This document shows, piece by piece, positions 6,311 through 29,206 of a stretch of DNA of 39,236 bases. Position numbers and translations under genes: made by a program. The notes below the pieces were generated by a model. It saw only the letters and a program-made list of their open reading frames with translations. It was not told the origin of the DNA and did no database searches. Each line of letters begins with the position of its first letter. Position 1 is the first letter of the stretch. Source of the stretch: Armatimonadota bacterium (GTDB lineage Bacteria > Armatimonadota > Zipacnadia > Zipacnadales > UBA5352); NCBI GenBank assembly GCA_034722055.1, contig JAYENL010000111.1, forward strand, positions 1-39,236, in the 5' to 3' direction.

Positions 6311-7381
6311 CTATCCGGGGAACACCACGGAGTCGAACTCCGCCCACGGCGACGGGCCGGTCGTCGTGAACTGGGCCCGAATCCGGTACCGGTAGCTCAC
6401 ACCCTCATCCACCTCGAAGTCCGCGAAGCTGGTGTCATCCGCCAGCACATTCCCCTGCGACCCGGGCACCGGATTCCAGGTCGCACCGTTGTCCGTGGAC
6501 CGCTGCAGGTCGTAGCTCAGCACCGTCAACGTCGTGTTCGGAGGCTGCCAGAAGAGGCGGATGGCCGCCGGTTCGATCTGCAGGTCGCCCGGTCGTGGCG
6601 GTACCTTCGTGGCCGTCGGGCCCGCCCCACCACCGCCATCATCTCCGGTCGCGATGATCAGGCCCATCACCGCCAGCGCCGCAATCGCCCACCGCCAGCT
6701 CTTATCCTCCTTCTTCGGGCCCTCCTCCGCGGCCAGCTCCTCTGCCGGCATTCCGGCCAGCACGCTGCTGGCCTTTCGCGCCGCGTCCCTCAACGCCTCC
6801 CGCACCAGCGGGGGGACGCTTCCGGTGTACGCCTCACGCTCTCGGCTCGTGCCTGAGACCCCGAACGTCTCGACGGGCTTGGGACTCTCCGCCACTTCCA
6901 TCGTGTCAGGGTCCACATTCCCCCGCACGTCGTAGCACCGCCCGTTCAGCAGCACCTCGGCCCGCAGCGGCTCCTCCAAGATCTCGACCGAATCCACCGT
7001 CGCCAGGCAGACCTCATCCACGTCCAGCGCGTACCCCAGCCGGATCGCGGTCACCGGATCCGTTACCTCCGCCTCAAGATCAACGGACCGGATCTGGCCT
7101 TCCTCGACTGCCCGCAGCACCATCGGTGCCGTCCTCGAGAACTCCGCCACACGCAGGCCAGCCACATCGCTCAGCGCCATCTGCAGATATGAGGTCGCCC
7201 AGGCGCTGAGATCCTCGTACCCGGCCTCGCTCCGGTCCAGGACGGGGTACAGCAGCAGCCTCTTCTGCGCCTGCGCCTCGGCGCGTGACATGACGCTCGT
7301 CGGAACCAGCAGGGCCAGCATCATCCCCGCAAGCACGATGCTTAGCGGTCCGACCAGCTTGCTGGATCTTATCGCCGTCAT
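6311..7381 (-). CDS. Exported protein: CsgG/TolB_N-like alpha/beta domain, internal hydrophobic helix, C-terminal fibronectin type III domain
   Basis: RBS AGGAG; signal peptide ending AEA|Q; RLLLYPVLDRS...AIRLGYALDVDEV; KKEDKSWRWAIAALAVMGLIIATGDDGGGG; Fn3 pattern IRLFWQPP...YDLQRS...YRYRIRA. Confidence 0.65.
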   Translation of the reverse strand: MTAIRSSKLVGPLSIVLAGMMLALLVPTSVMSRAEAQAQKRLLLYPVLDRSEAGYEDLSAWATSYLQMALSDVAGLRVAEFSRTAPMVLRAVEEGQIRSVDLEAEVTDPVTAIRLGYALDVDEVCLATVDSVEILEEPLRAEVLLNGRCYDVRGNVDPDTMEVAESPKPVETFGVSGTSREREAYTGSVPPLVREALRDAARKASSVLAGMPAEELAAEEGPKKEDKSWRWAIAALAVMGLIIATGDDGGGGAGPTATKVPPRPGDLQIEPAAIRLFWQPPNTTLTVLSYDLQRSTDNGATWNPVPGSQGNVLADDTSFADFEVDEGVSYRYRIRAQFTTTGPSPWAEFDSVVFPG

Positions 7382-7448: not shown

Positions 7449-10259
7449 CTACCGGGCAATCGTCGCCGTCCTGATCACGCTCATCTCTTCGCCCGTCTCG
7501 GGCGAGCGCGCCGTCACTTGCACCAGATACCTTCCCGCCGGAACCACAGTCCCGGAGTCGCTCACACCATTCCACACCAGGCTGTTCTGTCCCTCCATGG
7601 CCTGGCGGTTCTGCGCCACCCGGCGCACCACCCGACCCGCGATGTTCCTCACCTGCACGTCCACCGCCGCCGCGCTATTGAGGGTGTAGACGATCTCCAG
7701 CCCCTGGCCGCCCGCCGGCCGTGCTGCAGCGGTCAGGCCCAGCGTCGCCTCCGCCCGCGGCCGGACCGTGATGCGGAAGTGCCTCTCCCCACCGGTGTGC
7801 GAGTTGTATGTGTACGAGCTGCTCGTTCGCATGTATGTCCGCCGGCCGCCGTCAAGGTCCTCCAGCGTCGCCACCAGGTCCTCCGGCAGCTCGGACGAGA
7901 GGTTCGGCCACCGCAGCGTGACCGGCGCACCCGGCGTCTCAGCGACCACTGTCAGGTCCCACGCCCCGGCGCCAGCCGCCTCCGACCTGGTGTCCATCAC
8001 GTAGCGCAGGCCGCCGTCACCGATGCTGAAGTAGGCGTCCAGCCCCGGCTCCGCCGAGAGTACCTCCGGCGGCGATGGTACGTCGCGCGGATCCACCCCA
8101 TCCTCGGCGCTGGGCGAGACCGCCAGGTAGCGCGGCGCCCGAGTCCGGCCTGCACACGACACCTCTACGCCGACCCGCCAGCCGTCTGACACGGGAGGAC
8201 TCGCCGCCGCAGTAACCTCCGCCGGCGCAAAGAGGCTCGGGGGCGGGAACACCAGAGAGACGTCCCGATACGCCAGCAGCCAGTAGCCCTCGAACGGCAC
8301 CAACGTTGCCCGCTGCAGTGAGCTCTCCCAGGTGTACTCGTTGATCTCCGGATCATACGCGTAGAGCACCGGCAGGATCAGCCCTCGCTGCGTCGCCTCC
8401 TGGATCGTCCACTCCGTGCCCTGAGGCCCCACCACGCCTACCTGATCGAAGCGCATCGGAACCACGTAGGGGTTCCCGATCTGGTTCCAGCCCTGCATGA
8501 GGGGATGTGTGAAGCTCTGCGTGGACGGTGCCTGTGTGGCGGTGCTCGGCAGTATCACCGTCTCTCGGTTCTGGTTCAGCAGCCAGAAGCCCTCGCCCAG
8601 CTCGATGTTTGCCACGAAGGGGTCGGGATAGGTGAAGTACTCACCTCGATCCGGATGCCAGCGCCAGATCCCCACCGGCCCGCCGGGGAAGACCGAGTCG
8701 CTGAGCGACCCCAGCACATTCGAGGCATCCGAGTTGGTGAACTCGTAGGGCACGGACAGCATCTCCAGCCCCGTCGCCGAAACTCGCGCCGGAATGACGG
8801 GAATTGCCGGAATGTTGATCTGCCGCCGCACCACCTTCCCCAACGGCCCCGTGATGCTGATCTCAGCCGTGCCCGGACGCGTCGCCGTGGCCCGCACCGT
8901 CCACTGTGCCATCGGCAGAGGCGACTGGTTCCGCCTCACCATGCCCAGCGCCACCGTCCGCGGCTGCGTCTCCGGATACAGCTCCAGGCCCTCTGGAAGG
9001 CTGATGCGCACGCTCGCATTCGTCAGCGGTGAGGATCCGAAGTTGTCGAGCATCGCCACCACGTCGAAGACCGAGCTGCCGTCCGGGGCGGTCAGGTAGT
9101 ACTCCTCCGTCTCCGGCGTGGCCGGGTCATCGCCCTCTTGCACCTGAAGCTGCGAGGGAGCGTAGGCCGCCAGCGCGTAAGGGGGGTCGTAGTCCACCGC
9201 CGCAGCGCCCAGCCCGTAGTAGGTCACGTACCGCCGGCTCTGCCCTGGCTGCAGCGTCCGCTCCTCCCACTTCACAGCGTAGGCCCAGTCCTCGTCGATC
9301 AGCGCTGCCCGCGGGTTGGGCTGGAAGTCGAATGGCCTCGCGTCGACATTGCGGAACTGCCCGAAGGCGATCTCATCCGGCTCCCCCCCGCTCTCCGAGG
9401 CGATTCCGGCATCCGTGACCTCCGCCCCCACCAGCGTCCCCCTCACGCTCACCAGTGGATTGCTGGGATCGTCGTGCGCCACCCACGTGTCCGGCATGGC
9501 GATCGTCGGATTGTCGGGGTCCGGAATCCGGACCTCGTTGCTGATCACCGTCCCGTCGTCGAGTATGATCGGGCTGCCGTCCCTCGCTGTCGCCCCAAAG
9601 AGCGCGTCGATCATCAGCCGCAGGCCGATGTTGTGCGCCACGCTGTCATCATTGTACACGATGTGATCCAGCATGATCCCGTCGTGCACCAGCATGTAGT
9701 TCACACGCACACGCACGTTGGGGTTGTCTTCCTCGGGCACCTCGGTGAGCAGAGGCACCAGCACCTCACCCACAACATCCCGTGCACCCGCCACCAGGTC
9801 CTGCACCCAGAAGATCGGCACATCCGCCGGGTCCGCCTCCTCTGTCTGGTTGAACATGAGGCTATAGGGGTCGAAGCGCACGCCGTCCACCGAGACTGTG
9901 AGCTTGGAGGTGAACTGCGTCAGGTTCCAGTCCGGCGCCGCGGTCTCCAGGCTCGCGATCGGCCGGTCCTCATCCCCCGCCACCAGCGGGCTGCCGCCCA
10001 CCGCCACATTCGCTCCGGTCCTCAACTGGAACCGGCCGGCGGGTTGGTAGATATACTCCGGATCGTCCGCGTCCCCGACGTTGATGAGTGCCGGTGTGTC
10101 AACCAGCATCCGTGTTAGCCCCGCGGGATGGTTCACGGTGGCCCGCACGTTCTGTGCCGCGCTCTGGCTCCATGCCGTCAGCAGGATACACACCGCGGCC
10201 ATCCACGGCCCGTACCGCCGCAGCCCTGTCAGCATTCGTAGACCACTATGCCGCTGCAC
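7449..10259 (-). CDS. Large secreted protein of unknown function carrying the shared C-terminal tail (FlgD-Ig-like end)
   Basis: AGAGGAG precedes GTG 10259 (ORF track start 10301); signal peptide ending SAA|Q; beta-rich body; tail from GLEMLSVPY (~8772) with GWNQIGNPY, YMRT, NIAGR; ends TIAR. Confidence 0.8.
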   Translation of the reverse strand: MQRHSGLRMLTGLRRYGPWMAAVCILLTAWSQSAAQNVRATVNHPAGLTRMLVDTPALINVGDADDPEYIYQPAGRFQLRTGANVAVGGSPLVAGDEDRPIASLETAAPDWNLTQFTSKLTVSVDGVRFDPYSLMFNQTEEADPADVPIFWVQDLVAGARDVVGEVLVPLLTEVPEEDNPNVRVRVNYMLVHDGIMLDHIVYNDDSVAHNIGLRLMIDALFGATARDGSPIILDDGTVISNEVRIPDPDNPTIAMPDTWVAHDDPSNPLVSVRGTLVGAEVTDAGIASESGGEPDEIAFGQFRNVDARPFDFQPNPRAALIDEDWAYAVKWEERTLQPGQSRRYVTYYGLGAAAVDYDPPYALAAYAPSQLQVQEGDDPATPETEEYYLTAPDGSSVFDVVAMLDNFGSSPLTNASVRISLPEGLELYPETQPRTVALGMVRRNQSPLPMAQWTVRATATRPGTAEISITGPLGKVVRRQINIPAIPVIPARVSATGLEMLSVPYEFTNSDASNVLGSLSDSVFPGGPVGIWRWHPDRGEYFTYPDPFVANIELGEGFWLLNQNRETVILPSTATQAPSTQSFTHPLMQGWNQIGNPYVVPMRFDQVGVVGPQGTEWTIQEATQRGLILPVLYAYDPEINEYTWESSLQRATLVPFEGYWLLAYRDVSLVFPPPSLFAPAEVTAAASPPVSDGWRVGVEVSCAGRTRAPRYLAVSPSAEDGVDPRDVPSPPEVLSAEPGLDAYFSIGDGGLRYVMDTRSEAAGAGAWDLTVVAETPGAPVTLRWPNLSSELPEDLVATLEDLDGGRRTYMRTSSSYTYNSHTGGERHFRITVRPRAEATLGLTAAARPAGGQGLEIVYTLNSAAAVDVQVRNIAGRVVRRVAQNRQAMEGQNSLVWNGVSDSGTVVPAGRYLVQVTARSPETGEEMSVIRTATIAR

Positions 10260-10290
10260 CGAAGGGTCAGCTCCTCTCACCATGAGCCCG

Positions 10291-13200
10291 TCACCGTGCA
10301 ATGCTGAACGGTCGTATTGCCTGCACCGTCTGGCCGTCTGCTGCGAGAGCCGTCAGCCGAACGATATAGCGGCCCGAGGGCACTGCGCTGCCCCGGTCGC
10401 TGATGCCGTTCCAGACCAGCGTCTGCTGCGTCCCACTCTCCACGGCCTGCGCGGCGAACCGCTTCACCAGCCGGCCCGCGATGTTCATGACCTCCACCGT
10501 CACGTCCGCTGGCCTCGTCACCGAGTACGTGATCATCGCGCCGCCCGCGCCAGCGCCCTGCGTCGCCATGCCGTTGACTGCCAGGGCCTCCCCGCCGCCC
10601 ACTTCCGTCACCCGCAGGTGCCTCACGGTTCCGTCCGCCCCGGCCCGGAAGCGATAAGCCGAGGTGGTACGCATGTACACCCGCTCTCCCGTGTCCAGGT
10701 CCTCCAGCATGAGGCGCACACCTCCGGGGACCTCGGCATTCAGCTCAGGCCAGGTGACCTCGACCTCCGCGTCGGGCACCGCACAGCTCACTTCAATGTC
10801 CCACTGGGCCGCCTCGCCCGTCCCGCACACGTCACGCGCGTACTCTCCGCTGTGCTCGCCCCACCCCGGCCGCGACATCGACAACTGGACGCCGTCCACG
10901 ATCGGCGGCGGCTCCGGCACGTCCCACTGCGGATCATACCCCGCGCTCGCGTTGGACTTCACCCCGATGACGTTGCACGGATCCTGATACGCGCCCGCAC
11001 GAGCGCTCAGGGTCAGCAGCCAGCCGTCATCCGACTGCGCCTGCACCGTCTCTTCCTCGTCCGCCATCGATCCGATGTTGGAGCTGTAGACGACGACGCG
11101 CGTGTCCTCATTCACGTGCAGCCAGTAGCCCTTTCCCGCCTCCAGCATTGCCTGAGAGGGGTTCGGGGTGAAGTCGTAGAAGCCCGGTCGCCCGCCCCGG
11201 CCCTGCACATACCTGAACAGCACGCCCTCCGTCACGCCGGAGTTAATGGCCTCCCGCAGGTCCTGGCGCACACCGTTCGTCACGAACTGCACGCTCCCCC
11301 AGCTTACGTCCTCGTCGTAGGGATTGCCGATCAGGTTCCAACCTCGCGGCGGCTGCTGGCCCCGGTACAGGCGGATGTGCGCGCTCGGCACGTCGCGCAG
11401 CGGCTGCCCCTGGATGTCCAGCACCCCACTCCGCGGGATGCTCAGCCAGTAGCCCAGGCCGGCCGGCGGATAGGGCACCGTGCGATCATCCAGATTCGCC
11501 TGCTGCGCGTCCGGCGGGGTCAGACTCGCCCGAGCATCCGGGTAGAAGTGGTACTTGTCGTAGGTCTCGTCCAGAGGCCACCACCGTACCAGCGCCAGGT
11601 CCGACAGCGGCGTCCCCAGAATCACGCTGGGGTCGGTCACCTGCAGATCGGTGTACGGGAAGCTCACCATCGAGATTCCGCCCGGGATGGTCGGCGCCGC
11701 CACCCGGAAGTTCGTCACCGCCGGGTCGGCCTCGTTCCCGGTGTTGTCCTGCACGCCGAGCACCACGGTATGGTCCGTCCGCGCCAACACGTCCTCCACC
11801 GGCCAGGTGAACTGCCCGGTGCGGGCGTCGTAGAACTCCGTGATGTCGTCGGCGTCCGCGCCGTTGAAGACCTGTATCCCATCGAACTCGACGGTGATCG
11901 TCGTCGGGGCCACGCCGCTGCCGTCATCCTGGATGAAGGCGATGATGGTTGGGATCCGCGTCGTGATGGTGGTGCCGTTCTGCGGATAGGCGATCGTGAT
12001 TGTTGGCTTCCGGCTGTCCGCGCCCACCCGCATCCGCAGACGTCCCCACCCGAACTCGTTGTTCGGAACCGGGTCACCCAGCCGCAGCGCCTGCGAGCGC
12101 AGCACCGTCTCCAGCTCGTCGGGCGTCCGCAGCTCGTCCTCGCTCAACAGCAGCGCAGCCGCGCCCGCCACGTGCGGCGCGGCGGCTGACGTCCCCAGGA
12201 ACGGTGAGAACCCCTCCGCTGCTAGACTCGTGCTCACCCCGTCCGGCGCCACCAGATCGGGCTTGATGCGCTCCGGATGCCCCACCACCGGACCGCGGGA
12301 GCTGAACGGCTCCAGCCCATCGATCGGCACCATCGGGGCGGCCGGGTCTGAGACCGTCGCTCCCCGAGTGGCGCCAATGGTATACGCCCCTCGCGCCTCC
12401 GCCGGAATCGGCATGCTCGAGGTCGCCACCTGATGGGTTGCCTCGATGTCCACGTTCGCCGAGAAGAGCTGGAGGAAGTCATCGTGCTCCGCCGGCCCCG
12501 ACACGTACTCAACCTGCAGCGTGTAAACCGCGTCTACGCTGATATGCGCCACCAGCGTATCCGATGGTGGATCGTCGCCGTTCTGGCTGTACCCGGAGCG
12601 GGTAATCTCGTTCCCGCTGGAGTCCAGCAGCACCAGGTCGTAGTCCCTGTTGGTGATCGACCCGGCGGTCTGATACCAGCTCAGGTAGGCCTGGTAGACC
12701 CCGGCCGTCAGCGTCACGTCGATACCCTCGTCGCCGGCGGAGAACTCGTGCAACTGATCCCGATCGCGGTCGCTCCACGCCCCCTCGTAGTGCTGCTGAG
12801 CGCTGTTCCCGGCCGCATTGACCCAGAACACGCCGCGGTCACGAGCGCGGTTCACCTTCTGCGATATAGGATGCGTACCGTTGTAGGGACCGCCAAGCAG
12901 TCCCATCGCCATGCAGCAGACGTCGATCCCCCGGTTCGCGACGAACTCGATGGCGCTTTCCACGGACATCTCGGTGTCAACTGCAATCAGGATGAAATCT
13001 GCGGCAGGAGCCACGTCGGCGGCTATCTCCGCCACCGCTGTGCCGTGGTAGCTTGTGCCCATCGTGCCGTCCGCCCGGAAGGACACTACCCTGTCCGGGT
13101 CAGCGGGATCGATCGGGATCTCCGCGCTGTCGAAGCCGGCGAATCCCAGGTCGATGATCGCGATGGAGATCCCCTGCCCCAGCAGCCCGGCCGTGTGGAA

Positions 13201-13641
13201 CGGAACCGCCCCCACGAGCTGCACGCCCTCGCTTGAGGTCGCACCAAAGCCCTGCATGGGGATGGGATAGTTCGGAGGCCTGACCTGCGCCACCTCAGGG
13301 AGCTGCGCGATCTCCAGCAGCGCGTCCCCCGGCACAAACGCCTCCACTCGGCGGCCGTGCCGGAACCGCACCTGTGCACCGAAGGCCGACAGCGGCTGCG
13401 CGGCCGCCACCTCGCTGCGGAACTCCACCACCACCAGCACGCTGCCGGGAGGACCGACTGCCGATGGCCCCATCTGCGGCAGCTCTCCCCGCTCAGCGCT
13501 GATGGCCATCGCGCGAAGCGGCCCGGCGAGATCCTCCAGCCCTGCCGCGCCCCAGCACGGCACCGAGACCACGGAGGCGAGTACGATTAGCGCGATGATT
13601 GCACCGCACAGGGGGGTCTCGCGATTGCGAAGCCGACTCAC
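10291..13641 (-). CDS. Secreted subtilisin-like S8 serine peptidase with Ig-like domain and the shared C-terminal tail
   Basis: Catalytic motifs IAIIDLG (Asp), YHGTAVA (His), AAGN (oxyanion Asn), GTSAAAPHVAG (Ser); prodomain after the signal peptide; AGGAGGAGGAG RBS before GTG 13641; tail with GWNLIGNPY, YMRT, NIAGR; ends SIAR. Confidence 0.92.
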   Translation of the reverse strand: MSRLRNRETPLCGAIIALIVLASVVSVPCWGAAGLEDLAGPLRAMAISAERGELPQMGPSAVGPPGSVLVVVEFRSEVAAAQPLSAFGAQVRFRHGRRVEAFVPGDALLEIAQLPEVAQVRPPNYPIPMQGFGATSSEGVQLVGAVPFHTAGLLGQGISIAIIDLGFAGFDSAEIPIDPADPDRVVSFRADGTMGTSYHGTAVAEIAADVAPAADFILIAVDTEMSVESAIEFVANRGIDVCCMAMGLLGGPYNGTHPISQKVNRARDRGVFWVNAAGNSAQQHYEGAWSDRDRDQLHEFSAGDEGIDVTLTAGVYQAYLSWYQTAGSITNRDYDLVLLDSSGNEITRSGYSQNGDDPPSDTLVAHISVDAVYTLQVEYVSGPAEHDDFLQLFSANVDIEATHQVATSSMPIPAEARGAYTIGATRGATVSDPAAPMVPIDGLEPFSSRGPVVGHPERIKPDLVAPDGVSTSLAAEGFSPFLGTSAAAPHVAGAAALLLSEDELRTPDELETVLRSQALRLGDPVPNNEFGWGRLRMRVGADSRKPTITIAYPQNGTTITTRIPTIIAFIQDDGSGVAPTTITVEFDGIQVFNGADADDITEFYDARTGQFTWPVEDVLARTDHTVVLGVQDNTGNEADPAVTNFRVAAPTIPGGISMVSFPYTDLQVTDPSVILGTPLSDLALVRWWPLDETYDKYHFYPDARASLTPPDAQQANLDDRTVPYPPAGLGYWLSIPRSGVLDIQGQPLRDVPSAHIRLYRGQQPPRGWNLIGNPYDEDVSWGSVQFVTNGVRQDLREAINSGVTEGVLFRYVQGRGGRPGFYDFTPNPSQAMLEAGKGYWLHVNEDTRVVVYSSNIGSMADEEETVQAQSDDGWLLTLSARAGAYQDPCNVIGVKSNASAGYDPQWDVPEPPPIVDGVQLSMSRPGWGEHSGEYARDVCGTGEAAQWDIEVSCAVPDAEVEVTWPELNAEVPGGVRLMLEDLDTGERVYMRTTSAYRFRAGADGTVRHLRVTEVGGGEALAVNGMATQGAGAGGAMITYSVTRPADVTVEVMNIAGRLVKRFAAQAVESGTQQTLVWNGISDRGSAVPSGRYIVRLTALAADGQTVQAIRPFSIAR

Positions 13642-13736
13642 TTTGACTCCTCCTCCTCCTGGTCGCACCGCCGTGCGTACCAGCTCTGGAGAACGTGCTG
13701 CATCTCTCGCTGCCGTTACCCCCAGCGCAGAGGTGG

Positions 13737-14927
13737 TCAGCCCGCCCCACCCTCCTGCTCTGGGTTGTCCGTCACTCGACCTAGAAGCTGTTCAAGGCGG
13801 CCGCAGTAGCACTCGATCAGCCTGCCCCACCCGCTCGCCGCCCCGAATCCCTCAGCCTGACCCGCGTACCCCGCCGGAACGTCTTCCAGCGCCATCGGCA
13901 TGAGAACCGTCAGCCCACAGCCCAGCCCACCGACCCCCATTGCGCTTAGCCGTTCCGCAGCTCTCTCGGCCTCTTCCAGCGCCCTCCCGTCGCCGTTCGC
14001 CAGCGCCTCGCACAGCCCCTGGACCTCGCACAGCTCCCCGTTGGGGCCGAATCGCTGGGTCTGGCTGCGCGCGGCCGTCACTCCCGGGCACCAGCTCCTC
14101 ATGTCCCCGGACAACGCCGCTGACAGGTCCTTCAACGCCCCTATCGCTCCGTCAAGCGCCGCGAGCCGGACGGCCGCCGCCTTGCACTCGCCGTCCCTGG
14201 GCAACTCTACGCACTGCATGGCGAGCGTCTCTGCCTCGGACAGTCCCTCGACCGGGCGCACCTGCACCCCTGCCCACTGCACTCCCGCCACCGGCGCCCG
14301 GCCGGGCCACCCCACCATGACTTCCGCCGCGTCACGAAGTGACCAGGCCGCCTCCACGCTGGCGCCGTAGCAGCAATCGGCCACAAGTATATCAAGCGGC
14401 CGCTCGGCATCGCCGAATGCCCCAGCCACGGCACGGGCCAGCTCCTGCGGTGTCAGCACGTCGCCGCCTGCCGACGCGTCGAGTGCCAGCCCCTGCGCCT
14501 CGTAGCGGCGATCCCGCTCTGTCGTCCTGCCGCTGGCCGCCACCCCGTGGCCGAACACCACGAAGGCGAGCCGATCACCCACGGCCCGCCCCCGGACCCA
14601 GCGGAGGAAGTCCTCGACGGCCTCCCGCCGACACATGTTGATCTGCCCGCGCCGCCACCACTCAGTCTCCGAACCTTCGGATCCGACGGCCTGGCGCGTG
14701 ACGCCATCAGGGAGGTCCACCTGCGACCTCAGAGCCCATCCATTCGCCGCTGCGGCCACCCGAAGCCCCTCGGCGTACCTCTCCGCCACCCTCGCCAGAT
14801 CCCCGTCGCCGCAGATGTAGGCGGCAACCGTCCAGTTGTCAGCGATCGCGACGTCTCCGGCCAGCGCGCCGCCGAGGGCCAGCGCGGCGCACACGAGCAT
14901 CCGCAGGCGGCCGTACCGCACGCTCAT
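13737..14927 (-). CDS. Secreted clostripain-like cysteine peptidase (family C11, clan CD)
   Basis: Signal peptide; NWTVAAYICGDGDL matches the clostripain N-terminal WTxxxYxxGDNDL pattern; His-Gly motif FVVFGHG; Cys motif LVADCCYGASVE equivalent to FDACxMxxxE. Confidence 0.75.
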   Translation of the reverse strand: MSVRYGRLRMLVCAALALGGALAGDVAIADNWTVAAYICGDGDLARVAERYAEGLRVAAAANGWALRSQVDLPDGVTRQAVGSEGSETEWWRRGQINMCRREAVEDFLRWVRGRAVGDRLAFVVFGHGVAASGRTTERDRRYEAQGLALDASAGGDVLTPQELARAVAGAFGDAERPLDILVADCCYGASVEAAWSLRDAAEVMVGWPGRAPVAGVQWAGVQVRPVEGLSEAETLAMQCVELPRDGECKAAAVRLAALDGAIGALKDLSAALSGDMRSWCPGVTAARSQTQRFGPNGELCEVQGLCEALANGDGRALEEAERAAERLSAMGVGGLGCGLTVLMPMALEDVPAGYAGQAEGFGAASGWGRLIECYCGRLEQLLGRVTDNPEQEGGAG

Positions 14928-14956
14928 AGGCGCGACCTTAGGGCGCAGGCCCTCCT

Positions 14957-16906
14957 CTAGCGAAGCCCCCGGCTCCGCAGTCCGGGCGTCCTGTGTCGGT
15001 ACCGGGGCCCAAAGGTCCCTGAGAACACGCCGCCCGGCCCGAGCCGGTAACTGGCTGAGCTGGTTCCCGGCGGTGGCGGGGGAGCCGCCGCGGTCGTGAA
15101 GCTGCGGATGGCGCTGAACAGCCAGCCCTCCTGGTTCAGGCGCTCGTTCAGGGGCAGTGCCTCACCTGACCGCCGCGCACCCACCCGCCAGTAGAAGCGG
15201 CTGTTTGGTGCGAAGTCTGCATCAATCGTCTGGAACATCGTGCCCGTCTGATCCTGCCGCATCTGCACCTCGTAGTCCGGATTGCGCCGTCCGTCCGGGT
15301 CATCCTCCGGGAAGACCTGCAGCACGTATTCGTTGGCCCCCACGGTCCCGCTCCACGTGAAGGTGATGGAGTTGGTCTGCTGGTTCTGTGCCCCGTCCTC
15401 CGGGGTCTGCAGTACCGGCGGCGTGAAGTATGTCACGCCGGCCGTCGGCTTGCTGCCCTCCGCCTGCGACTCCGGCGGGTCGATCTCCAGGGTCGGCGTC
15501 TCCAGCTCATCCTGCTGCATCGTCCGGACGGAGTCTGTGGTTATCGGCGCGCCGGCGCCCGCCCGCTCTGGCGGTTCCACGACGCGCTGCACTCGGTGGT
15601 AGTAGGTGTGGCCAGCCTGCAGCGGCCAGTGATAGAACAGCAGGTCGATGCTGCCGTCCTCCTCGTCGCCAGCCGCAGTGATGTAGGTGAACTCCTCTTC
15701 GATCTCAAACGGGCCGTCAAAGGCCGAATCGTCGTCCCAGACGTTGTTTGGCAGCCGCTGCTCCAGGATGACATCCACCAGCTTGTTCGCCAGCAGGCTG
15801 AAGTTCTGCCGGCCGTCGCTGCGGTAGAACAGCCACGCGTAGATCTGATCGTCGAGCGGTATCGACTTGTGCGGCACGTGCACCCGAATGACCGCCTCGT
15901 CTCCCGGCGCCTGCTGGAACAGCCGCGACGTCACGCCCGCCGGCGCGTCCGTAGTGCTCGAGCCCGTAGCGGTCTGCATGACGCCGAACAGGGCTGCGAT
16001 GGCAGCGACCACTGTGATCGTCTGCTGGCTGGACTCCTTCCGCCGCTGGGCCTCCACACGTTCCGGGCCTTGGTAGAGCTGGTAGGCCCGGTCCCCCACC
16101 CCCGCTCGGCCCTCTCCCAGTGGCATCATCTTCGAGGTCCGAGCGCCCACCTCGCTGACCGAGTAGCGCCCCACCTTCTGCAAAATGATCTCGCCCAGGT
16201 CCCGCTGATACACGGGACGGAACAGTATCATGGCCATGCCGCTCTTCAGTCTATCGTCCTGCCCCAGGTCAACGGTGGCCACGCCGAACTGGTTGACCGA
16301 CGTCACGAAGCCTTCGGGAATGCGGCTGGTGCGGATCTCCGCCACCGCGTCCTCCGCGATCTCCCGCAGCGCGTCATTGATGACACGCGCGCTCTCGCCC
16401 GTCCAGCCCGGCAGTGCCTTCGTCACCGTGCTCACATTCGCGCCGTTGAGGAACTCACCGGTCGCCAGGTCCAGCACCGCCACGCTCAGGTTCACGCTCA
16501 CCTGCCCTGTCTTCTCGGTCACCCGCAGGTGCCTCACCTGACCGGTGATCACCTTGTCCACCTGCAGACGCTCACCAAGCCGCATCTGCTCGGCCACCGA
16601 CAGCGGTGGCTCCAGTTCAAGCTGCGCCAGCTCACGCACGAGGTCCCGTTTGGAGGTAACGATGAATTCCCTCGAATCCTCAAGCGCCAGCGCCAGCGCG
16701 TCCGTGGCCTGCTCGCTGATGACGGACTCGGTGGACCCCTCGGTGTCCTCTATCGGCAGCACGATCACGCTGGCGCTCTCCACCACCGGCTGTGCCTGCG
16801 CCTCCGCCACCACCGGGAAGCCCATCACTGCGTACGGGACCATCAGCGTTGCCGCTACATACAGCGCGACGTACTTCCAGAGGGGGCTCTCGTGTAGTCG
16901 ATGCAT
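14957..16906 (-). CDS. Exported protein: CsgG/TolB_N-like domain, FlgT_C-like beta domain, hydrophobic helix, Fn3-like domains, Pro/Arg-rich tail
   Basis: GGGAGGAG RBS; signal peptide ending AEA|Q; SVIVLPIED...RLGERLQVDKVITGQV...VLDLATGE; VDLGQDDRLKSG...VGRYSVSEV; ITVVAAIAALFGVM; FTWSGTVGANEYVLQV...FYWRVGAR. Confidence 0.65.
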   Translation of the reverse strand: MHRLHESPLWKYVALYVAATLMVPYAVMGFPVVAEAQAQPVVESASVIVLPIEDTEGSTESVISEQATDALALALEDSREFIVTSKRDLVRELAQLELEPPLSVAEQMRLGERLQVDKVITGQVRHLRVTEKTGQVSVNLSVAVLDLATGEFLNGANVSTVTKALPGWTGESARVINDALREIAEDAVAEIRTSRIPEGFVTSVNQFGVATVDLGQDDRLKSGMAMILFRPVYQRDLGEIILQKVGRYSVSEVGARTSKMMPLGEGRAGVGDRAYQLYQGPERVEAQRRKESSQQTITVVAAIAALFGVMQTATGSSTTDAPAGVTSRLFQQAPGDEAVIRVHVPHKSIPLDDQIYAWLFYRSDGRQNFSLLANKLVDVILEQRLPNNVWDDDSAFDGPFEIEEEFTYITAAGDEEDGSIDLLFYHWPLQAGHTYYHRVQRVVEPPERAGAGAPITTDSVRTMQQDELETPTLEIDPPESQAEGSKPTAGVTYFTPPVLQTPEDGAQNQQTNSITFTWSGTVGANEYVLQVFPEDDPDGRRNPDYEVQMRQDQTGTMFQTIDADFAPNSRFYWRVGARRSGEALPLNERLNQEGWLFSAIRSFTTAAAPPPPPGTSSASYRLGPGGVFSGTFGPRYRHRTPGLRSRGLR

Positions 16907-16988
16907 TATCTCGTTGCTCCTCCCGGCACGCGGCTCACGGCACGATCCGCCCGGATGTTGCGCACGGAAGTCAGTCCTTATCCTGCAA

Positions 16989-17018
16989 GCTCCGCCGTGC
17001 CACGATGCGCGGCGGAGC
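16989..17018. other. Strong intergenic stem-loop just downstream of the largest cluster gene
   Basis: GCTCCGCCGTGC / GCGCGGCGGAGC, 11 of 12 Watson-Crick pairs, 6-nt loop; only TT follows on the coding strand. Confidence 0.7.
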
Positions 17019-17027
17019 GCGCTGCCC

Positions 17028-20000
17028 TCATCGGCCCAGCCTCATCGTCCCCATCGCTTGACTCTTCTGGCCGCTCTCACCCTCAGCGGTCACCACCACC
17101 AGATACGTCCCGTTCGGCGCCCTCGTGCCAGTGCTGGTGCTGCGGTCCCACACGACCCTCTGCACTCCCGCCCTCTGCATCGAGCCGTCGATGACCGTGT
17201 CCACCACCCGGCCGGCGATGTTCAGCACACGCACCTGCACGCTCGCCGCCGCCGACAGCGTGTAGGTGATCTCCGCTCCCGCACCGGCCGCTCGCGCTGA
17301 CGGTGCCGATACCGCCACGCAGCCCCCATCATCGGCCAGCACGATCTCCAGCTCTCGCGCATCCGCCCTGGCAGCCAGCTCATAGCCCTGCACGGTGCGC
17401 ATGTACACCTCGTTACCCGCCGCGGGATCGACCAGCACCGGCCTCACGTCCGCCGGCAGCGATGACAGGTCCGGCCAGCGGACCTCGACCTGCTCACCGG
17501 CTGGCGCCATCACGCTCACCGTCCACGTGGTCCCCGCCGCCTCCGGCCGCACATCAACCGCATAGCTGCCCTCACCTGCAGCGGCGTAGACGCAACTACC
17601 CATCCCCGGAGGCGGGGGCTTGAGCATGTCCATGCCGGCATCAAAGCCCTCCGTGGCGCTGGGAGCACAGCCGATCCACGTCGATGCGTCCCGCATCCCC
17701 GCGCTGCTCACGACCACCGGGATCAGCCAGCCTCCCTCCGGGTTCGTCACTGCGGCCCGGCTGGCCTCCCCGTCATCGGCCAGCGTGTCAGTAAGCCGGT
17801 TGCCGAGGATATCCACGCCCTCGCTCACGTTCAGCCAGTAGCCCACGAAGGGCTCCGCCACCGCCGAGGTCTCGTAGGCCCCCAGCACGTAGGTGAACAG
17901 CGGGCTGCGTACCAGGCCCTCCGCCATCGCCTGCTGCATGGTGTAGACGATGCCGGTGCGGTCACGCACCTCCAGCGAGAAGAAGTCTATGGCGTCGGTG
18001 AAGAAGTCGCCGATCAGGTTCCACCCGGACTGCCCCGAATCCAGCGGCACCTGGTGCTGGTCACCGGCCTCGATGCCCTCCTGCGTCAGCTCCAGCGTCG
18101 CAGTGGGCTTCATCCAGTAGCCGCTCCCCAGTCGGAAGCGGTCCGCCGGCGTGGACGGGTAGATGTGATAGCGCCCGTCCCGCGGCTCCCAGGCCGCCAT
18201 CTTGAAGTTCGCCGCGTCCGCTCCCAGCAGCGCTGCGGGATCCGTGTTCGGGTAGTCGTAGGGCAGGGAGATAAGCTGCAGCCCCGCGGGGAACGTCCGG
18301 ATGCTGCTCACCGAGAAGTTGACCGCATCGGTCTCCTCGCCGCTGGTCACCGTCACGATCCGCCGCTGTGGCGAGACTGTGAAGCCCTGCGGATCCGGCT
18401 CCACCACGATCTGCCCGGTGGGCACGGCGTCGAATCGGTAGTTGTACGGTGCACCGGTCTGGGGTCTCGTCACCTCGGCCTCGCTGACCGCAGCATCAAT
18501 GATCTGCTCGTTGACCAGCAGGTGCACTGTGATGCCGCCCACCGGCTCACCGGTCAGCCCCCGCGAGATGAGCCCCGAGATGCTCCCCGGCGGCTCGCTC
18601 TGCAGCGGGATAGTCACTTCCTGTGTGGCAGCCGCCTCCACCTGCACTGGTTGAGGGTCCGAGCGCTGGAAGCCCGCCGCCGCCGCCTCCACCGAGTAGG
18701 TGCCCGGCTGCACCTCGATCCGCACCTGACCGGAATCGTCGGTCACACCCTGGCCCATCAGCGTGCCATCAGTAAGGATCTCCACCAGCGCGTTGGTGAT
18801 GGGATTGTCCTCGATATCGGTCACCGTGGCGATGACGGTCCCCGGCGCGGCGCCCAGCGCGAAGTCCAGGGTGGTCGTGTTGCCGCTGGTGACGGTCACC
18901 ACGGACTCCTCCGTGTCATACCCGAGGTGGCTCCCATCAGCCACCACGATCACCTCACCGACCGGGATGTCACCCAGCAGGTAGGTCCCGTCGGCGTCCG
19001 TGGTCGTGCAGGCGATCAGCTCACCGCGCTGCGGCCCTTCGTCCTCGTCTCCATCGCCGTTCTGGGCCGGCTCGGCCTGACTCTGCTGACCACCGTCTCC
19101 GTTCTCCTCCTCATCCTCCGGCTCCGGCTGGATCGCCTCGTAGGCGCACACCTCCACCGTCGCCAGCGGCTCACCGGTGGCCAGCGCCGTCACCGTCCCC
19201 CGGATCGCCCCGGGCGCCGCCCGCGTGATGGCGAAGTCGATCACCGGATAGGCGCCGCCCCCGTGCGCCTCCTCGTTATCCTGGTGGTCGATCTCGAACC
19301 CCGGCCGATGCGCCCGCAACGTGTACACGCCCGGTGCCAGCCCGCCCATGACGTAGCGCCCGTCCTCCTCGCACCGGACCGCGGCGATCACGTTCCCACC
19401 CTGTATGGCCTGAACCACCGGCGTGGGGTCGTTGATGGGCTGATTCCCGTCGCTGATGGACAGCACCCGGCCCTGGAAGCCCGCAGTTCGCAGGTGGCAG
19501 AGGCAGTTGTGCATCAGCTTCGACCGGAAGTTCAGACAGACGCCGTACTCCTGGGGGTCAACCACGTCGTAGGTTCGATGTGTCTGCTCGAATCCCCACG
19601 CGAAGTAGATGACCCTGTATCCGCCGCCGGGCTGCTCGTACCGCAGACCCGCGTTCCCCTCCGTCGAGTAGGTGTGTGTCACCGTGGCCCCCCCGACAGG
19701 TTCGATCACATCCGACCACAGCGTGTACTGCGCACAATCCTGTCTCCGGCACTCGTTGCTGATCTCGTGCACGCCAGTCTGCATAGTCAGGGGCGGGTAG
19801 GTGTAGAACGTCCAGCCCGGGTGCCGAGCCACCGGATCGCCGTCTACGCCGTTTACCTCCGGAGGCCAGTAGGCATCCGGCAGGCGGTCGTCCTGACCCA
19901 GGCTGACAACGATGAGGAAGCAGCCTCCGTCGGCTGAATCCTCAACATAGTTGGCGTGCAGGTAGTTCGTGTAGAAGTTGTTCTGCACCGTCCCGTCCAG

Positions 20001-22151
20001 AGTCAGCGCAAAGCCGATGTCCTGGCCCGACATCATGAGGCGCCCGCCCCGATCCAGGAAGGTCGCCAGGGTCGCCTGGGTCGATGCATCCACGAGGCTG
20101 CCGGGACCGGCCCACACATCGCCGGTATGCGGCGCGGCCCATACTACGCACCGGTTCGCCACCAGCACCTCCCGCAGGTCCTGCATGTCCGGCACTGACA
20201 ACTGGACCTCCGTCGCGGGCAGGTAGTAGATGAGGTCGTTCATCGTGATGGGACCGCGGCATATTACCCGCCACAGATCATAGCGCTCCCCCAGCACCCG
20301 CCTCGGCGGCCCGCTGACCCCGTCGATGAACGTGTTGTACGCCTCATTATCCGCCTCCTCTGAATCGCCGGGGTTGGTCGTGTAATAGCTCTCCACAGGG
20401 TAGACGGTCGGGAAGTCGTTGTTCTCCCAGCTGGCGTTCCAGATGAATCCCTGGCCCTCGCAGTAGTCGTCCACCAGCAGGACGTTGTACTGCGGCTGGA
20501 ACATCAGCGTGGTAAAGCCATAAACGTCGTCGTACTCGAAGGCGTTGCCGGCCACGTCCTGAACGACGATGTCGATGATGAAGTCGCTCGGCGACAGCGG
20601 CGTGGTCCACTTGCCGCTGAATATCCCGTCTCCCTCCACCGCATCGCCGTGCTCCGGATCACCATCATCGAACAGCTCGGCCTGCCCCGCCTCCCGGCAG
20701 TCCAGCTCCAACTGCCCGGTGCCCTCCACCGGCTCGATGGACCAGCTTGCGCCCGGGTAGGGGCCGAAGATCTTGTTCTCCCGGCCCTGGCTGTCGTCCA
20801 CCGCCGAATCGGGGTCCTTGAACTGCGCCACCACATGCGCCACGCCGCTGTCGCGGTCGAAGACCTCCACGTGCACGGTGACGTCATTGCCCGGCGTCAC
20901 CAGCCGCCGCCGCGCGTCCACATATGGAAGAGCCATGAGCTGGGGAGGCACCGGGTCGGAGACCTCAAACCGCCAGATGTCCGGCTCAGCGCCGGCTTGG
21001 TCAGGGCGCCACGAGGTGAAGAAGATGCGCACCGGAAGGCGGGGGTCCAATCCGGGGTTGAAGCACGGGTAGCGATCGTCGAAGGTATCCTCGGGATCGA
21101 GGTTGCTGCGAAGCTGCGCGTCTACGGCGTCCTCACCGGCCGGCACCACCGTCCAGATGTTATAGTCCAGGTCCGCGTCCATCGCCTCCGTGCGCCGGTT
21201 GGACGAGAAGGCGATGAGCTGGCCGTTATGCCGCCACGCCGGATCGCGGTCATTCGCCGCCGGGTCGCCGCCCCCGTTGGTCACCTGCTCCTCGTTGCCG
21301 CCATCGGGGTCAACCCGGAAGATCCGGCTTCCCATGCCCGTCCCGCTGCGCGTGAAGAGGATCGGCCCCCTGATGACCCCCACCGACCTCGTCCAGGCCG
21401 GCTGCGTCTCCTCCGCCGGCGTCTGAACTATGGGCTGGGGCGCCTCCGACCCGTCGGAGGGCATCACGAAGATGTCGCGGTTGCGGTTGAGGTCGCCGCT
21501 GAACGCAAACCGCAGACCGTCCGGTGACCATGTCGGATCGTGCTTGTTCCCCGGCCCGCTCGTGATCTGCCGAATAGTCCCCGTCAGCACCTCGACGGTG
21601 TAGATCTGCCAGGTGCCGCTGGAGTTGTTCGAGAACGCCACCAGGCGGCCGCCGGGACCGTACTCCGGATACAGCTCGTCCCCAGGCATCTGCGTCAGTT
21701 GCGTCACCAGCGAGCCGTCCGTACGCAGCAGCCACAGGTTGAAGTCATCGGCGGTAACGCCCGGATCGAACTCCCCATCCCCGTTCTCATCCACGCCGTT
21801 GCTGGAGATGACGATCCGGTTCAGTTCGCCCTGCGGCGCAGAGTTGGGGTACAGCTCCTCGCTCGCCGTGGCCGTCGGGGTCAGTTGCAGGTCCGGAATC
21901 GGTCCGGGGCCCGCCTGCGCCGTCCGCACCTCTCCCATCCGCTCGAATAGCCAGTCCGGCCGGGCCATGCCGATGTACCGCCGGCCACTGGGCAGACGCT
22001 GTCCCGTGGCGGAGTAGTGGTCGGCAATGGTACTGGAACCCGATTGTGTCCCACGTGGGGAGGCGTTGAGGGAGGTGAAACAGGTGCTCAGAATAATTGC
22101 GGCGGAAAAGCAGACGACCAGTGTCAGAAGGATGCGCCCCTTCTGCAACAC
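17028..22151 (-). CDS. Very large secreted multidomain protein: PD40/TolB-like propeller, choice-of-anchor X-like motif, GATase-like alpha/beta domain, ~4 carboxypeptidase-regulatory-like domains, shared C-terminal tail
   Basis: Repeated P-x-W-S-P-D-G-type blades (HDPTWSPDGLRFAFS); LFDDGDPEHGDAVEGDGIFSG; VLLVDDY...LDRGGRLMMSGQDIG; repeated G-x-I-x-G-x-V...DGTY motifs; tail with GWNLIGDFF, YMRT, NIAGR; ends RLGR. Likely start GTG 22151 or TTG 22148 after GGGGAG (ORF track start 22292). Confidence 0.8.
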   Translation of the reverse strand: MLQKGRILLTLVVCFSAAIILSTCFTSLNASPRGTQSGSSTIADHYSATGQRLPSGRRYIGMARPDWLFERMGEVRTAQAGPGPIPDLQLTPTATASEELYPNSAPQGELNRIVISSNGVDENGDGEFDPGVTADDFNLWLLRTDGSLVTQLTQMPGDELYPEYGPGGRLVAFSNNSSGTWQIYTVEVLTGTIRQITSGPGNKHDPTWSPDGLRFAFSGDLNRNRDIFVMPSDGSEAPQPIVQTPAEETQPAWTRSVGVIRGPILFTRSGTGMGSRIFRVDPDGGNEEQVTNGGGDPAANDRDPAWRHNGQLIAFSSNRRTEAMDADLDYNIWTVVPAGEDAVDAQLRSNLDPEDTFDDRYPCFNPGLDPRLPVRIFFTSWRPDQAGAEPDIWRFEVSDPVPPQLMALPYVDARRRLVTPGNDVTVHVEVFDRDSGVAHVVAQFKDPDSAVDDSQGRENKIFGPYPGASWSIEPVEGTGQLELDCREAGQAELFDDGDPEHGDAVEGDGIFSGKWTTPLSPSDFIIDIVVQDVAGNAFEYDDVYGFTTLMFQPQYNVLLVDDYCEGQGFIWNASWENNDFPTVYPVESYYTTNPGDSEEADNEAYNTFIDGVSGPPRRVLGERYDLWRVICRGPITMNDLIYYLPATEVQLSVPDMQDLREVLVANRCVVWAAPHTGDVWAGPGSLVDASTQATLATFLDRGGRLMMSGQDIGFALTLDGTVQNNFYTNYLHANYVEDSADGGCFLIVVSLGQDDRLPDAYWPPEVNGVDGDPVARHPGWTFYTYPPLTMQTGVHEISNECRRQDCAQYTLWSDVIEPVGGATVTHTYSTEGNAGLRYEQPGGGYRVIYFAWGFEQTHRTYDVVDPQEYGVCLNFRSKLMHNCLCHLRTAGFQGRVLSISDGNQPINDPTPVVQAIQGGNVIAAVRCEEDGRYVMGGLAPGVYTLRAHRPGFEIDHQDNEEAHGGGAYPVIDFAITRAAPGAIRGTVTALATGEPLATVEVCAYEAIQPEPEDEEENGDGGQQSQAEPAQNGDGDEDEGPQRGELIACTTTDADGTYLLGDIPVGEVIVVADGSHLGYDTEESVVTVTSGNTTTLDFALGAAPGTVIATVTDIEDNPITNALVEILTDGTLMGQGVTDDSGQVRIEVQPGTYSVEAAAAGFQRSDPQPVQVEAAATQEVTIPLQSEPPGSISGLISRGLTGEPVGGITVHLLVNEQIIDAAVSEAEVTRPQTGAPYNYRFDAVPTGQIVVEPDPQGFTVSPQRRIVTVTSGEETDAVNFSVSSIRTFPAGLQLISLPYDYPNTDPAALLGADAANFKMAAWEPRDGRYHIYPSTPADRFRLGSGYWMKPTATLELTQEGIEAGDQHQVPLDSGQSGWNLIGDFFTDAIDFFSLEVRDRTGIVYTMQQAMAEGLVRSPLFTYVLGAYETSAVAEPFVGYWLNVSEGVDILGNRLTDTLADDGEASRAAVTNPEGGWLIPVVVSSAGMRDASTWIGCAPSATEGFDAGMDMLKPPPPGMGSCVYAAAGEGSYAVDVRPEAAGTTWTVSVMAPAGEQVEVRWPDLSSLPADVRPVLVDPAAGNEVYMRTVQGYELAARADARELEIVLADDGGCVAVSAPSARAAGAGAEITYTLSAAASVQVRVLNIAGRVVDTVIDGSMQRAGVQRVVWDRSTSTGTRAPNGTYLVVVTAEGESGQKSQAMGTMRLGR

Positions 22152-22391
22152 AATCACTCCCCGGGCCTGCGGCTTCGACCCATTGGTAGCGGCAAGTGGT
22201 GCTACGCGCGCCCCGTGAGTATTCGTCTGGCTCCAAGCCTGTCCCGCCACGGCCAGGACCTGATGGCCCTGGCCCGTCCGCCGGCAGCGCACCCGGGGAC
22301 GCCGTCCGCCACGTTAAGGCTCTCGGAGGCGCCTCGTCCGCCTCCGTGTCCCGCGCCCGCATGGCCCGGCGGCAAGTAACGTTCGCGGCGG

Positions 22392-27840: not shown

Positions 27841-28893
27841 TTACTGCACTATCTTCATCATACTCTCTACGTGAGCGAGTCGCTCGTCATAGAGCATGTA
27901 CTCAACGGCCATCCGCCGGCCAAGCTGTTCCACCTTCGCGCTCACCCACGGGAAAATGCCGGCGCCGCCGCCCATGTTCTTGAGCTTTGGCTCCCCCTCT
28001 ATCCCGCCCAAGTCGCCCGCCAGCTCCACAGCGCGGTAGAAGTTCCCGGTCTCGTCAATCAGCCCGTGCTCCAGCGCCTCCTCCCCGGTATAGATGCGGC
28101 CGTCAGCCAGCTCGCGGACCTCCTCAACATCCATGTTGCGGCCCTCGGCCACTGCCTCGATGAACTGTTCGAGCATGTCGTCGATGAGATTCTGCAGCAG
28201 CTCCTTCTCGTCAGGGCGCATCTCCCGCCACGGCGAGCCGGTGTCCTTGTAGCGACCGGTAGTGAGGTTCCCGCCCTCAACACCGATCTCGTCCATCAGC
28301 TCATAGTACTCCAGGAAGGGCGAGCGCACGCCGATCGAGCCGGTCACCGTTGAGCGGTTGGCCACGATGCGGTCGGCAGCCGCGGCGATATAGTACCCCC
28401 CGGACGCAGCGACGTCGGCCATGGAGACCACCACCGGCTTCTCCTCCGAGAGCTTCTTAACCTCCTCGTAGATCTCCTGAGACGCCGCCGGACTGCCTCC
28501 CGGGCTGTTGATGCGCAGAACCACAGCCTTTACGCTGCTATCGTCACCCGCATCGCGAAGCTGCTTCATCGTCTGTCGGGCGCCGCCCAGAGGCGGCCCG
28601 AAGAGCGGCTGTTCGCCTGCGGCGGTGATCATCCCCGAGACTGTCACCACACCCACGCGCTCGCCGAAGGCGCCGAGCGGCTCGCGGCCCCCCGACGCCA
28701 GTGTAAGCACCGCCACGATCACCAGCACCATCCCCCCCAGCAGCAGCAAGGCCGCCACCGACACGGCGATCACCACCGCCCAGTTGGTTCTCCTCTTCTT
28801 CTGTGGCGGGGGCGGCGGTGGCCCGGGAGGCTCCTGCTCCCGGCTCGATCCCGGCCGGTCCCCCTGCCAACCTCCTGTCTGTCCGCTGACCAA
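27841..28893 (-). CDS. sppA: Signal peptide peptidase SppA (S49, short single-domain type) with N-terminal membrane anchor
   Basis: LRINSPGGS, KPVVVSMADVAASGGYYIA, TGSIGV, GRYKD, ADGRIYTGEEALEHGLID; TTG start after GAGGTGAGG. Confidence 0.93.
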   Translation of the reverse strand: MVSGQTGGWQGDRPGSSREQEPPGPPPPPPQKKRRTNWAVVIAVSVAALLLLGGMVLVIVAVLTLASGGREPLGAFGERVGVVTVSGMITAAGEQPLFGPPLGGARQTMKQLRDAGDDSSVKAVVLRINSPGGSPAASQEIYEEVKKLSEEKPVVVSMADVAASGGYYIAAAADRIVANRSTVTGSIGVRSPFLEYYELMDEIGVEGGNLTTGRYKDTGSPWREMRPDEKELLQNLIDDMLEQFIEAVAEGRNMDVEEVRELADGRIYTGEEALEHGLIDETGNFYRAVELAGDLGGIEGEPKLKNMGGGAGIFPWVSAKVEQLGRRMAVEYMLYDERLAHVESMMKIVQ

Positions 28894-28932
28894 TTCCGCC
28901 TCACCTCACTATCCGTCCAGGCGTCGCCGTCC

Positions 28933-29099
28933 GGAGCGGCGGCGTCTTCAAGAAGCTGCAAGCTACAAGCCTCAAGCCTCCAGCTCGCGACTACCGACTG
29001 TGCCACAGCAAACTCGCCCACCGTTTGTCGTGAGCCGTTGCTGTCCGCAGCGGCGGCGTCTTCAGACCCGCCGGCCGTTTGTCGTCGGCCGTTGCCGTT
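28933..29099. repeat. Composite intergenic repeat: two GCGGCGGCGTCTTCA cores, CCGTTTGTCGT units and a CAAGCYW heptamer run
   Basis: Cores at 28936 and 29050; caagcta-caagcct-caagcct-ccagct run between them; 29050-29099 matches 37564-37613 at 42/50. Confidence 0.75.
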
Positions 29100-29167
29100 A
29101 TCCTCCGGCGCCTCCGCCCGCGCATTCCACCGACACCTGGGAACTCGCACCCGACGTCGCTCCACCG

Positions 29168-29196
29168 TTGACAATCCGTGGTGCCGCTGGTACACT
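29168..29196 (+). promoter_or_regulatory. Consensus sigma70 promoter of tRNA-Leu (TTGACA-N17-TACACT)
   Basis: TTGACA 29168-29173, 17-nt spacer ending TGg, TACACT 29191-29196, 10 nt before the tRNA. Confidence 0.85.
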
Positions 29197-29206
29197 TCTG
29201 GTGGGT

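Follow-up and report, generated by a model that had tools for sequence, protein, structure and literature searches.

Type IX secretion systems (T9SSs) have been described as restricted to the Bacteroidetes or to the Fibrobacteres-Chlorobi-Bacteroidetes (FCB) group (PMC4793230; PMC10994853); the sections we consulted of one survey place them in Bacteroidetes only and leave Armatimonadetes unmentioned (PMC4793230). Within the SprA pore of this system, it is the fold of the C-terminal domain (CTD) that is recognized, and a Lys near the end of the CTD is functionally important (PMC10994853). The last two CTD strands are enough for export (PMC4804311), and motif E of type A CTDs contains a conserved Lys or Arg (PMC11969387). 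In Vpr, two assembly domains mediate subunit contacts and build fibrils (PMC10657474). Here we describe a C-terminal tail carried by three proteins (T1, T2, and T3) that are encoded in a 39,236-nucleotide stretch of an Armatimonadota genome (assembly GCA_034722055.1, contig JAYENL010000111.1, positions 1 to 39,236; hereafter the window). We propose, with moderate confidence, that the last domain of this tail, C, is the export tag of a reduced T9SS-like channel and that the preceding domains, A1-A2 with or without B, stay on the protein as a surface anchor. Our literature search, which covered main texts and mostly papers free of subscription, found no report of a T9SS, an SprA relative or such a tail in Armatimonadota, and the sections consulted of two papers (PMC11611037, PMC12204202) contain nothing on Armatimonadota export. 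Since channel and tag both fall below model cut-offs, standard models miss the system.

The genome comprises 6.14 Mb, is 92.7% complete, and encodes T1-T3 as open reading frames (ORFs) that all lie on the minus strand. Its best named relatives belong to Armatimonadia, Zipacnadia, and WS1, which places it in Armatimonadota. A first-pass annotation had described the three proteins as unrelated at their N termini and alike in a three-part C-terminal tail. The common tail, its approximate position, its motifs, and its endings (TIAR, SIAR, and RLGR) were confirmed in all three: the tails are 430-470 residues long and align with 30-32% pairwise identity (E ~1e-50). The N-terminal parts are indeed unrelated. 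T1 (7449..10301, 950 residues) begins with a conserved uncharacterized region that matches no family, T2 (10291..13668, 1125 residues) with an S8 subtilase and a Big_7 domain, and T3 (17028..22292, 1754 residues) with a signal-like N terminus, a PD40/TolB-like propeller, and CarboxypepD_reg Ig repeats. The number of parts had to be revised. By sequence comparison the tail is made of four domains, A1-A2-B-C, as the part described as single is a pair of tandem repeats (A1 versus A2 by hhalign: probability 97.2, E 3.6e-11). In T3, A1 (18072-18302) and A2 (17808-18056) together span 17808..18302; B (17328..17735) is an all-beta domain of ~140 residues with GW..G..D..PP and (Y/D)xR motifs; and C (17031..17300), the proposed export tag, is a FlgD_ig/T9SS-CTD-like beta-sandwich with a terminal Arg. 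The corresponding domains lie at 11398-11691, 11086-11349, 10606-11031, and 10294-10569 in T2 and at 8535-8789, 8238-8519, 7755-8189, and 7452-7730 in T1, all on the minus strand. An AlphaFold2 model of the tail, built with 124 sequences, is all-beta and confident (pLDDT 93.9, pTM 0.82).

We compared C with known C-terminal domains. FlgD_ig was the sole tail part seen by Pfam in the window proteins, and domain C of T1, T2, and T3 passed the PF13860 cut-off. Comparison with the T9SS model TIGR04183 gave scores that stopped short of its cut-off of 23 bits (19.6, 18.4, and 16.2 bits for the window proteins). The fold of C aligned with residues 701-802 of Vpr (Z 13.4, root-mean-square deviation 2.2, 97 residues aligned) and with the PorU CTD (Z 11.2, root-mean-square deviation 2.3, 94 aligned), followed by Omp28 (Z 9.9) and FlgD (Z 9.6). 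Like a type A CTD, C is a C-terminal Ig-like sandwich with a motif B Gly, a motif D GxY, and a basic end residue; unlike one, it falls short of the TIGR04183 cut-off, lacks the YPNP motif, ends in Arg, and occurs outside the FCB group. By analogy only, this Arg would fit the role of the motif E basic residue. With FlgD, C shares the Pfam match and the structural alignment, but the FlgD N-terminal domain is not matched and C occurs just once, at the end of large exported enzymes. The tail proteins are not hook caps: PF13860 is their only match, they are 950-1754 residues long versus ~230, and the FlgD equivalog scores 28-35 versus 230. The Bacillus Vpr C-terminal domain (PDB 8jmw) is, as in T2, the last domain of an S8 peptidase, whereas Vpr comes from a monoderm and is without A1-A2-B in the aligned range. 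From its position, Vpr 701-802 is probably one of the two assembly domains.

Three elements of the tail, YMRT, NIAGR, and a terminal Arg, had been taken as invariant. Each holds in the window proteins and loosens elsewhere. YMRT is found in 4 of 14 full tails in the genome, in 38 of 136 database tails (those among the top 150 representatives that are full tails), and in 29 of the 92 aligned rows from outside the FCB group; its Arg is its only conserved residue (0.91 in the 92 rows). NIAGR stands in all 14 tails of the genome, but in 67 of 136 database tails and 35 of 92 rows. The terminal Arg is not an absolute rule (13/14, 122/136, and 84/92, respectively), the exception in the genome being C129, which ends in Pro, and is conserved overall at 85-90%. 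In the non-FCB rows the conserved positions of C include motif B G370 (1.00), motif D G404 (0.98) and Y406 (1.00), and the terminal R430 (0.85); in the FCB rows they include P342-N343-P344 (1.00) and K425 (0.91).

Full tails end 14 proteins of the genome, and a further protein, C316, ends in C alone; two weak internal C matches were seen on C120. Every full tail, 14 of 14 in the genome and 136 of 136 in the database, ends within 6 residues of the C terminus. Of the 15 tail proteins, 13 have a hydrophobic stretch near the N terminus, as judged by a crude hydrophobicity scan; the other two are T1, which stayed under the threshold, and a C91 protein without its start. The presence of three copies within 11 kb could reflect recent duplication at this locus, as the first-pass annotation had considered. 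We regard this as extremely improbable and have rejected it: the copies share 30-32% identity, 11 further full copies lie on other contigs, orthologous loci are found phylum-wide, and the tail itself occurs in 31 of 31 close relatives and in 144 of 151 Armatimonadota genomes. Thus, neither of the conditions that the first-pass annotation had named as refuting its reading came true, namely tails mostly at internal positions or on proteins without signal peptides, and confinement to this locus. Genomes contain up to 46 tail matches, on diverse lineage-specific enzymes. The passengers are unrelated and include S8 peptidases, propellers, and what we take by eye to be M6-like peptidases and pectate-lyase-like proteins. 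One protein of the genome (C179:3827-5779) consists of little beyond a signal-like stretch and an A1-A2-B-C tail. A whole-tail profile matched 3,305 protein clusters at E<=1e-30, a count that takes in FlgD_ig repeat proteins. Atlas searches returned clusters without names, and named neighbors stayed <0.9.

Full A1-A2-B-C tails also occur in Ignavibacteria, Cytophagales, Rhodothermia, Calditrichota, Marinisomatota, and Krumholzibacteriota. The Armatimonadota A1-A2-B profile matched 32 of 32 FCB-type rows (E<=6e-29), five of which are titled only 'bacterium' and were assigned by their C-terminal motif. Of 15 FCB tails scored with TIGR04183, 14 reached its cut-off, and SprA was above cut-off in 5 of 5 FCB genomes bearing such tails. 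Thus, as judged from profile matches, the same A1-A2-B tail sits on Bacteroidota/FCB T9SS cargo ahead of a canonical type A CTD.

We searched for the SprA channel itself. Full-length Sov/SprA (TIGR04189, at least 200 bits) was found in 0 of 151 Armatimonadota genomes, with 5 of 5 FCB positive controls detected. However, 82 of the 151 genomes contained a weak match to the SprA model in one stretch, mostly within ORFs of ~900-1200 residues. These ORFs form an unannotated barrel family of ~870-1200 residues whose last Phe is invariant. In the genome studied here, the family member lies outside the window at C298:4335-7835, directly upstream of a tail gene. A profile of the family matched 4 of 4 SprA proteins from the FCB group, with E values of 3e-22 to 3e-10 over the whole sequence, and two stretches are collinear between barrel and SprA (SprA residues 154-302 and 680-775, hhalign probability 97). 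The Armatimonadota barrel is homologous to the N-terminal strands and inserted domain of SprA and differs from it in size, since three complete FCB SprA proteins have 2100-2480 residues versus 870-1200. Flexithrix L126:5507-9142, from the FCB group, is a 1212-residue SprA paralogue of similar size without an NCBIfam name; its match to the Armatimonadota barrel lies in the N-terminal region of the latter (47.8 bits). Three other FCB genomes have similar-sized weak matches. Among 13 further loci of the SprA-like family that were retrieved, eight have a tail gene next to the barrel. On C298:4335-14293 (L139) the barrel and tail gene are followed on the same strand by two lipoprotein-like genes, an lptC-like gene, and an lptA-like gene, a run that ties the proposed export route to lipopolysaccharide transport genes. 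A second barrel family of ~1060-1200 residues (L125:6768-10259, L135:8235-11417) has in common only the SprA-type inserted domain.

Barrel and B-C tail co-occur. In 151 genomes, both were present in 91, neither in 56, the tail only in three, and the barrel only in one; by family, 23 had both, 15 neither, none the tail only, and one the barrel only. Barrel-positive genomes (n=92) were those with matches at E<=1e-15 (95) less three with a short stretch only (~5e-16), and B-C-positive genomes (n=94) were those with matches at E<=1e-12 (118) less 24 weak ones (1e-34 or worse). Of the 18 weak genomes inspected, 11 have a stop within 12 residues after the best B match, four have other domains following B, one has an internal C only, and two (G086 and G048) have a degenerate C without the terminal Arg. 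Tails in barrel-negative genomes mostly stop at A2 or B. Thus, C is lost together with the SprA-like barrel. On a single-marker RpoB tree of 39 genomes, from which G113 was excluded as its RpoB is fragmentary, the joint state changes eight times, and two sister pairs are of opposite state (G055/G136, support 0.999; G034/G165, 0.982). Because of these eight changes and well-supported pairs, the pattern is not one clade-wide loss. In two barrel-negative genomes, G090 and G065 (L162:295-2229, L163:1270-2232), B is followed by a C-terminal repeat, presumably dockerin-like as read by eye, in place of C.

Other T9SS components were scarce. SprA and PorV family searches of the genome found nothing, and its single PF01364 (C25) match is a protein that we take by inspection to be CHAT-like; a canonical T9SS in this genome was rejected. 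One of 151 genomes, in the tail-less family f30, had PorV over its cut-off, and 65 had any match; the candidates in the genome scored 18.8 and 20.2 bits versus a cut-off of 90. A barrel gene of ~300 residues that resembles PorV or, presumably, FadL immediately follows the LptD-like gene described below, or lies no more than 3 kb from it, in five loci from several families (L115, L116, L127, L128, and L129).

Several observations weigh against C as the export tag of an SprA-like channel. At the level of the tag, neither the YPNP motif nor the near-terminal Lys seen in FCB rows reaches a conservation of 0.7 in the non-FCB rows; 17 of 17 Armatimonadota tails tested missed the TIGR04183 cut-off, and 0 of 14 non-window ones were listed at E<=0.001. 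Other proteins contain FlgD_ig repeats at internal positions as well. At the level of the channel, homology to SprA covers ~240 residues of the N-terminal half only and the C-terminal half cannot be aligned, TIGR04189 gives 13-44 bits where 200 are required, and the barrel profile matches no PDB sequence. The family f4 tail gene next to a barrel stops at A2, and the second barrel family, with the inserted domain only, is present in barrel-negative f28. The co-occurrence has exceptions: G083, G112, and G167 have full tails and no barrel found, G040 has a barrel without B-C, and G086 and G048 keep their degenerate C without a barrel, so that counting them as tails gives five tail-only genomes. 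The B-C threshold was picked after the scores had been seen, in a gap from 4e-40 to 1e-34, with 18 of the 24 weak genomes inspected, and barrel-positive lineages supplied most of the sequences in both profiles. Partner proteins were not found or are unclear in the genomes searched. GldM/PorM was found in 0 of 4 Armatimonadota genomes, as was PorU (three had matches to its CTD region only, and the fourth had none); control G171 was positive for both. There was no clear PorV orthologue: the barrels resembling PorV or, as we take them, TraF or FadL are heterogeneous and patchy, no family of them tracks the tail, and they are present in tail-less f30. Lastly, the top fold match of C is a domain of Vpr and not a CTD.

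A different function for C would be that of an assembly or docking domain. The tail proteins would then stay on the barrel or, in the manner of Vpr, use C to assemble into fibrils or a surface layer, and C and barrel would be lost together as one envelope complex. The first-pass annotation had suggested S-layer-like polymerization for parts A and B; the single structural hint of polymerization, the Vpr match, falls on C. This explanation agrees with the match to Vpr 701-802, with the lack of a detected PorU to cleave C in the four genomes, and with the placement of three tail genes in a conserved housekeeping operon, which is more typical of subunits than of interchangeable cargo. However, C ends very diverse lineage-specific enzymes and, in C316, stands on a protein without the rest of the tail, and the equivalent slot in FCB genomes is filled by a canonical CTD. 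We regard an assembly role as the main rival to an export tag, possible though unlikely.

The operon around T1-T3 reads polA-rpsA-coaE-[T3]-N2-[C11]-[T2]-[T1]-N1-LptD-like barrel-uvrB and is found phylum-wide, with the bracketed genes variable. All of the following genes are on the minus strand. N2 (14957..16906, 649 residues) has a CsgG/LpoB-like N-terminal domain, an internal hydrophobic helix, and an FN3-like C-terminal half; N1 (6311..7381, 356 residues) is a paralogue of the N2 N-terminal domain with a hydrophobic helix and a weak FN3 match. Both have a signal-like start. The halves of N2 also exist as separate genes (C272:5106-5951 and the lipoprotein-like C106:23394-24620), so the N2/N1 helix may span the outer membrane. 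A clostripain-family (C11) peptidase with His-Gly and Asp-x-Cys motifs lies at 13737..14927, and an LptD-like outer-membrane barrel fused to Big_1 at 4244..6181. The LptD-like profile of the window matches LptD of 7omm (E 6.3e-6), and PF04453 matches nothing in the genome. A second LptD-like gene (C91:7616-10504) adjoins a gene that we take to be lptF/G-like; the Big_1-fused one is kept beside N2 and N1 in nearly all genomes of the phylum that were tested. In the f18 locus examined (L099), no tail gene other than T1 separates N2 from the LptD-like barrel. Elsewhere in the window, a candidate tRNA-Leu-like sequence lies near 29200-29290 (region 28770-29297), visible in ORF translations.

One could ask whether this operon, with its LptD-like barrel, CsgG-like N2 and N1, and the clostripain as a sortase, is itself the exporter. 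Its genes flank tail genes phylum-wide, its barrel is a second LptD-like gene, and N2 contains a CsgG-like domain. However, N2 and the LptD-like barrel adjoin without a tail gene in family f30 and in G147, an observation to which one search without a positive control contributed; loss of C does not track them; and a C11 gene was seen in this operon only in the window and in the Armatimonadia loci L019, L021, and L023. We consider an operon-encoded exporter very unlikely.

A further possibility is that the tail proteins are periplasmic or use another exit, with A1-A2 as a wall anchor, C as an ordinary FlgD-type Ig domain, and joint loss as envelope simplification. In G136 and G165, orthologues of T1, T2, and T3 stop at A2 and survive without C and without the barrel; these proteins either act in the periplasm or use another exit, a point that counts for this explanation and against an export tag. 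The occurrence of A1-A2 in organisms without an outer membrane and the promiscuity of FlgD_ig also favor it. Nevertheless, N2 was kept in 45 and the LptD-like barrel in 43 of the 46 genomes tested, tail-less f30 included, so that both are retained in nearly all barrel-negative genomes tested and the loss is specific to C. Together with the eight joint changes on the tree and the adjacency of barrel and tail genes, this makes a periplasmic location quite improbable.

The first-pass annotation had suggested that the tail is a sorting or anchoring signal and that its parts may be separate domains. This interpretation is partly supported: the division into a sorting part, C, and separate parts, A and B, agrees with their independent occurrence, and the tracking of an SprA-like gene by C is an addition. 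A1-A2 alone is found at the ends, and sometimes the starts, of exported-looking proteins in Capsulimonadaceae, in one named Chloroflexi protein, and in clusters named Methanoculleus, Methanomethylicia, and Torokbacteria (archaea and the Candidate Phyla Radiation). Some bacteria that bear A1-A2 lack an outer membrane. A Pfam scan of 62 members found no family matched by more than two (best E 0.013), and comparison of the sequence with PDB gave no clear match. The A1-A2 model is all-beta and confident (pLDDT 94.5); Foldseek gave no match at E<=0.001 and the best Z among 48,161 chains was 2.8, which does not thereby prove a new fold, and the whole tail gave only Foldseek matches of low TM. On this model, A1-A2 is a candidate new surface-anchoring fold. 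Among wall-anchoring repeats, SLH and CWB2 are the natural comparison: A1-A2 is likewise almost always paired and found at either end of exported proteins in bacteria and archaea, but its members share no Pfam family and it is predicted to have an all-beta fold with a best Z of 2.8. FlgD_ig repeats have a separate life as well: P0001, P0007, P0012, P0013, and others contain 8-15 tandem internal copies and no A or B, and several are S8-peptidase-like.

In the pathway we favor, in which C is an export tag, a tail protein would first cross the inner membrane by Sec through its N-terminal signal peptide, as the hydrophobicity scan suggests. C would then fold as a T9SS-CTD-like sandwich ending in Arg, in keeping with the predicted model and its fold matches. 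The half-size SprA-like barrel would recognize C and move the protein to the cell surface, a step to which homology, gene adjacency, and repeated joint loss all point. The route would work without PorU or GldM, neither of which was found in the four genomes searched. A1-A2, often with B, would be retained in the mature protein and bind it to the wall or surface, since it is found at protein ends in archaea and in bacteria without an outer membrane.

Armatimonadota are likely to run a stripped-down type IX-like export route, of which our literature search found no account outside the Bacteroidota-related phyla. More tentatively, and with less than even confidence in the whole, we suggest that most members of the phylum have a minimal route of this kind, consisting of a half-size SprA and cargo with an Arg-ended CTD, without a Gld motor or PorU, that was kept or lost as a unit many times and may represent the ancestral core of the T9SS, and that the cargo is held on the surface by a new fold, A1-A2, shared by bacteria and archaea. 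If true, a half-size SprA that functions with neither motor nor sortase would offer a way to learn which components type IX export cannot do without and from where its translocon arose. The unnamed domains A1-A2 and B are spread over thousands of protein clusters. For this poorly studied diderm phylum, the system would be the first specific protein-export route, with a predicted cargo list of 15 proteins in the genome described here.

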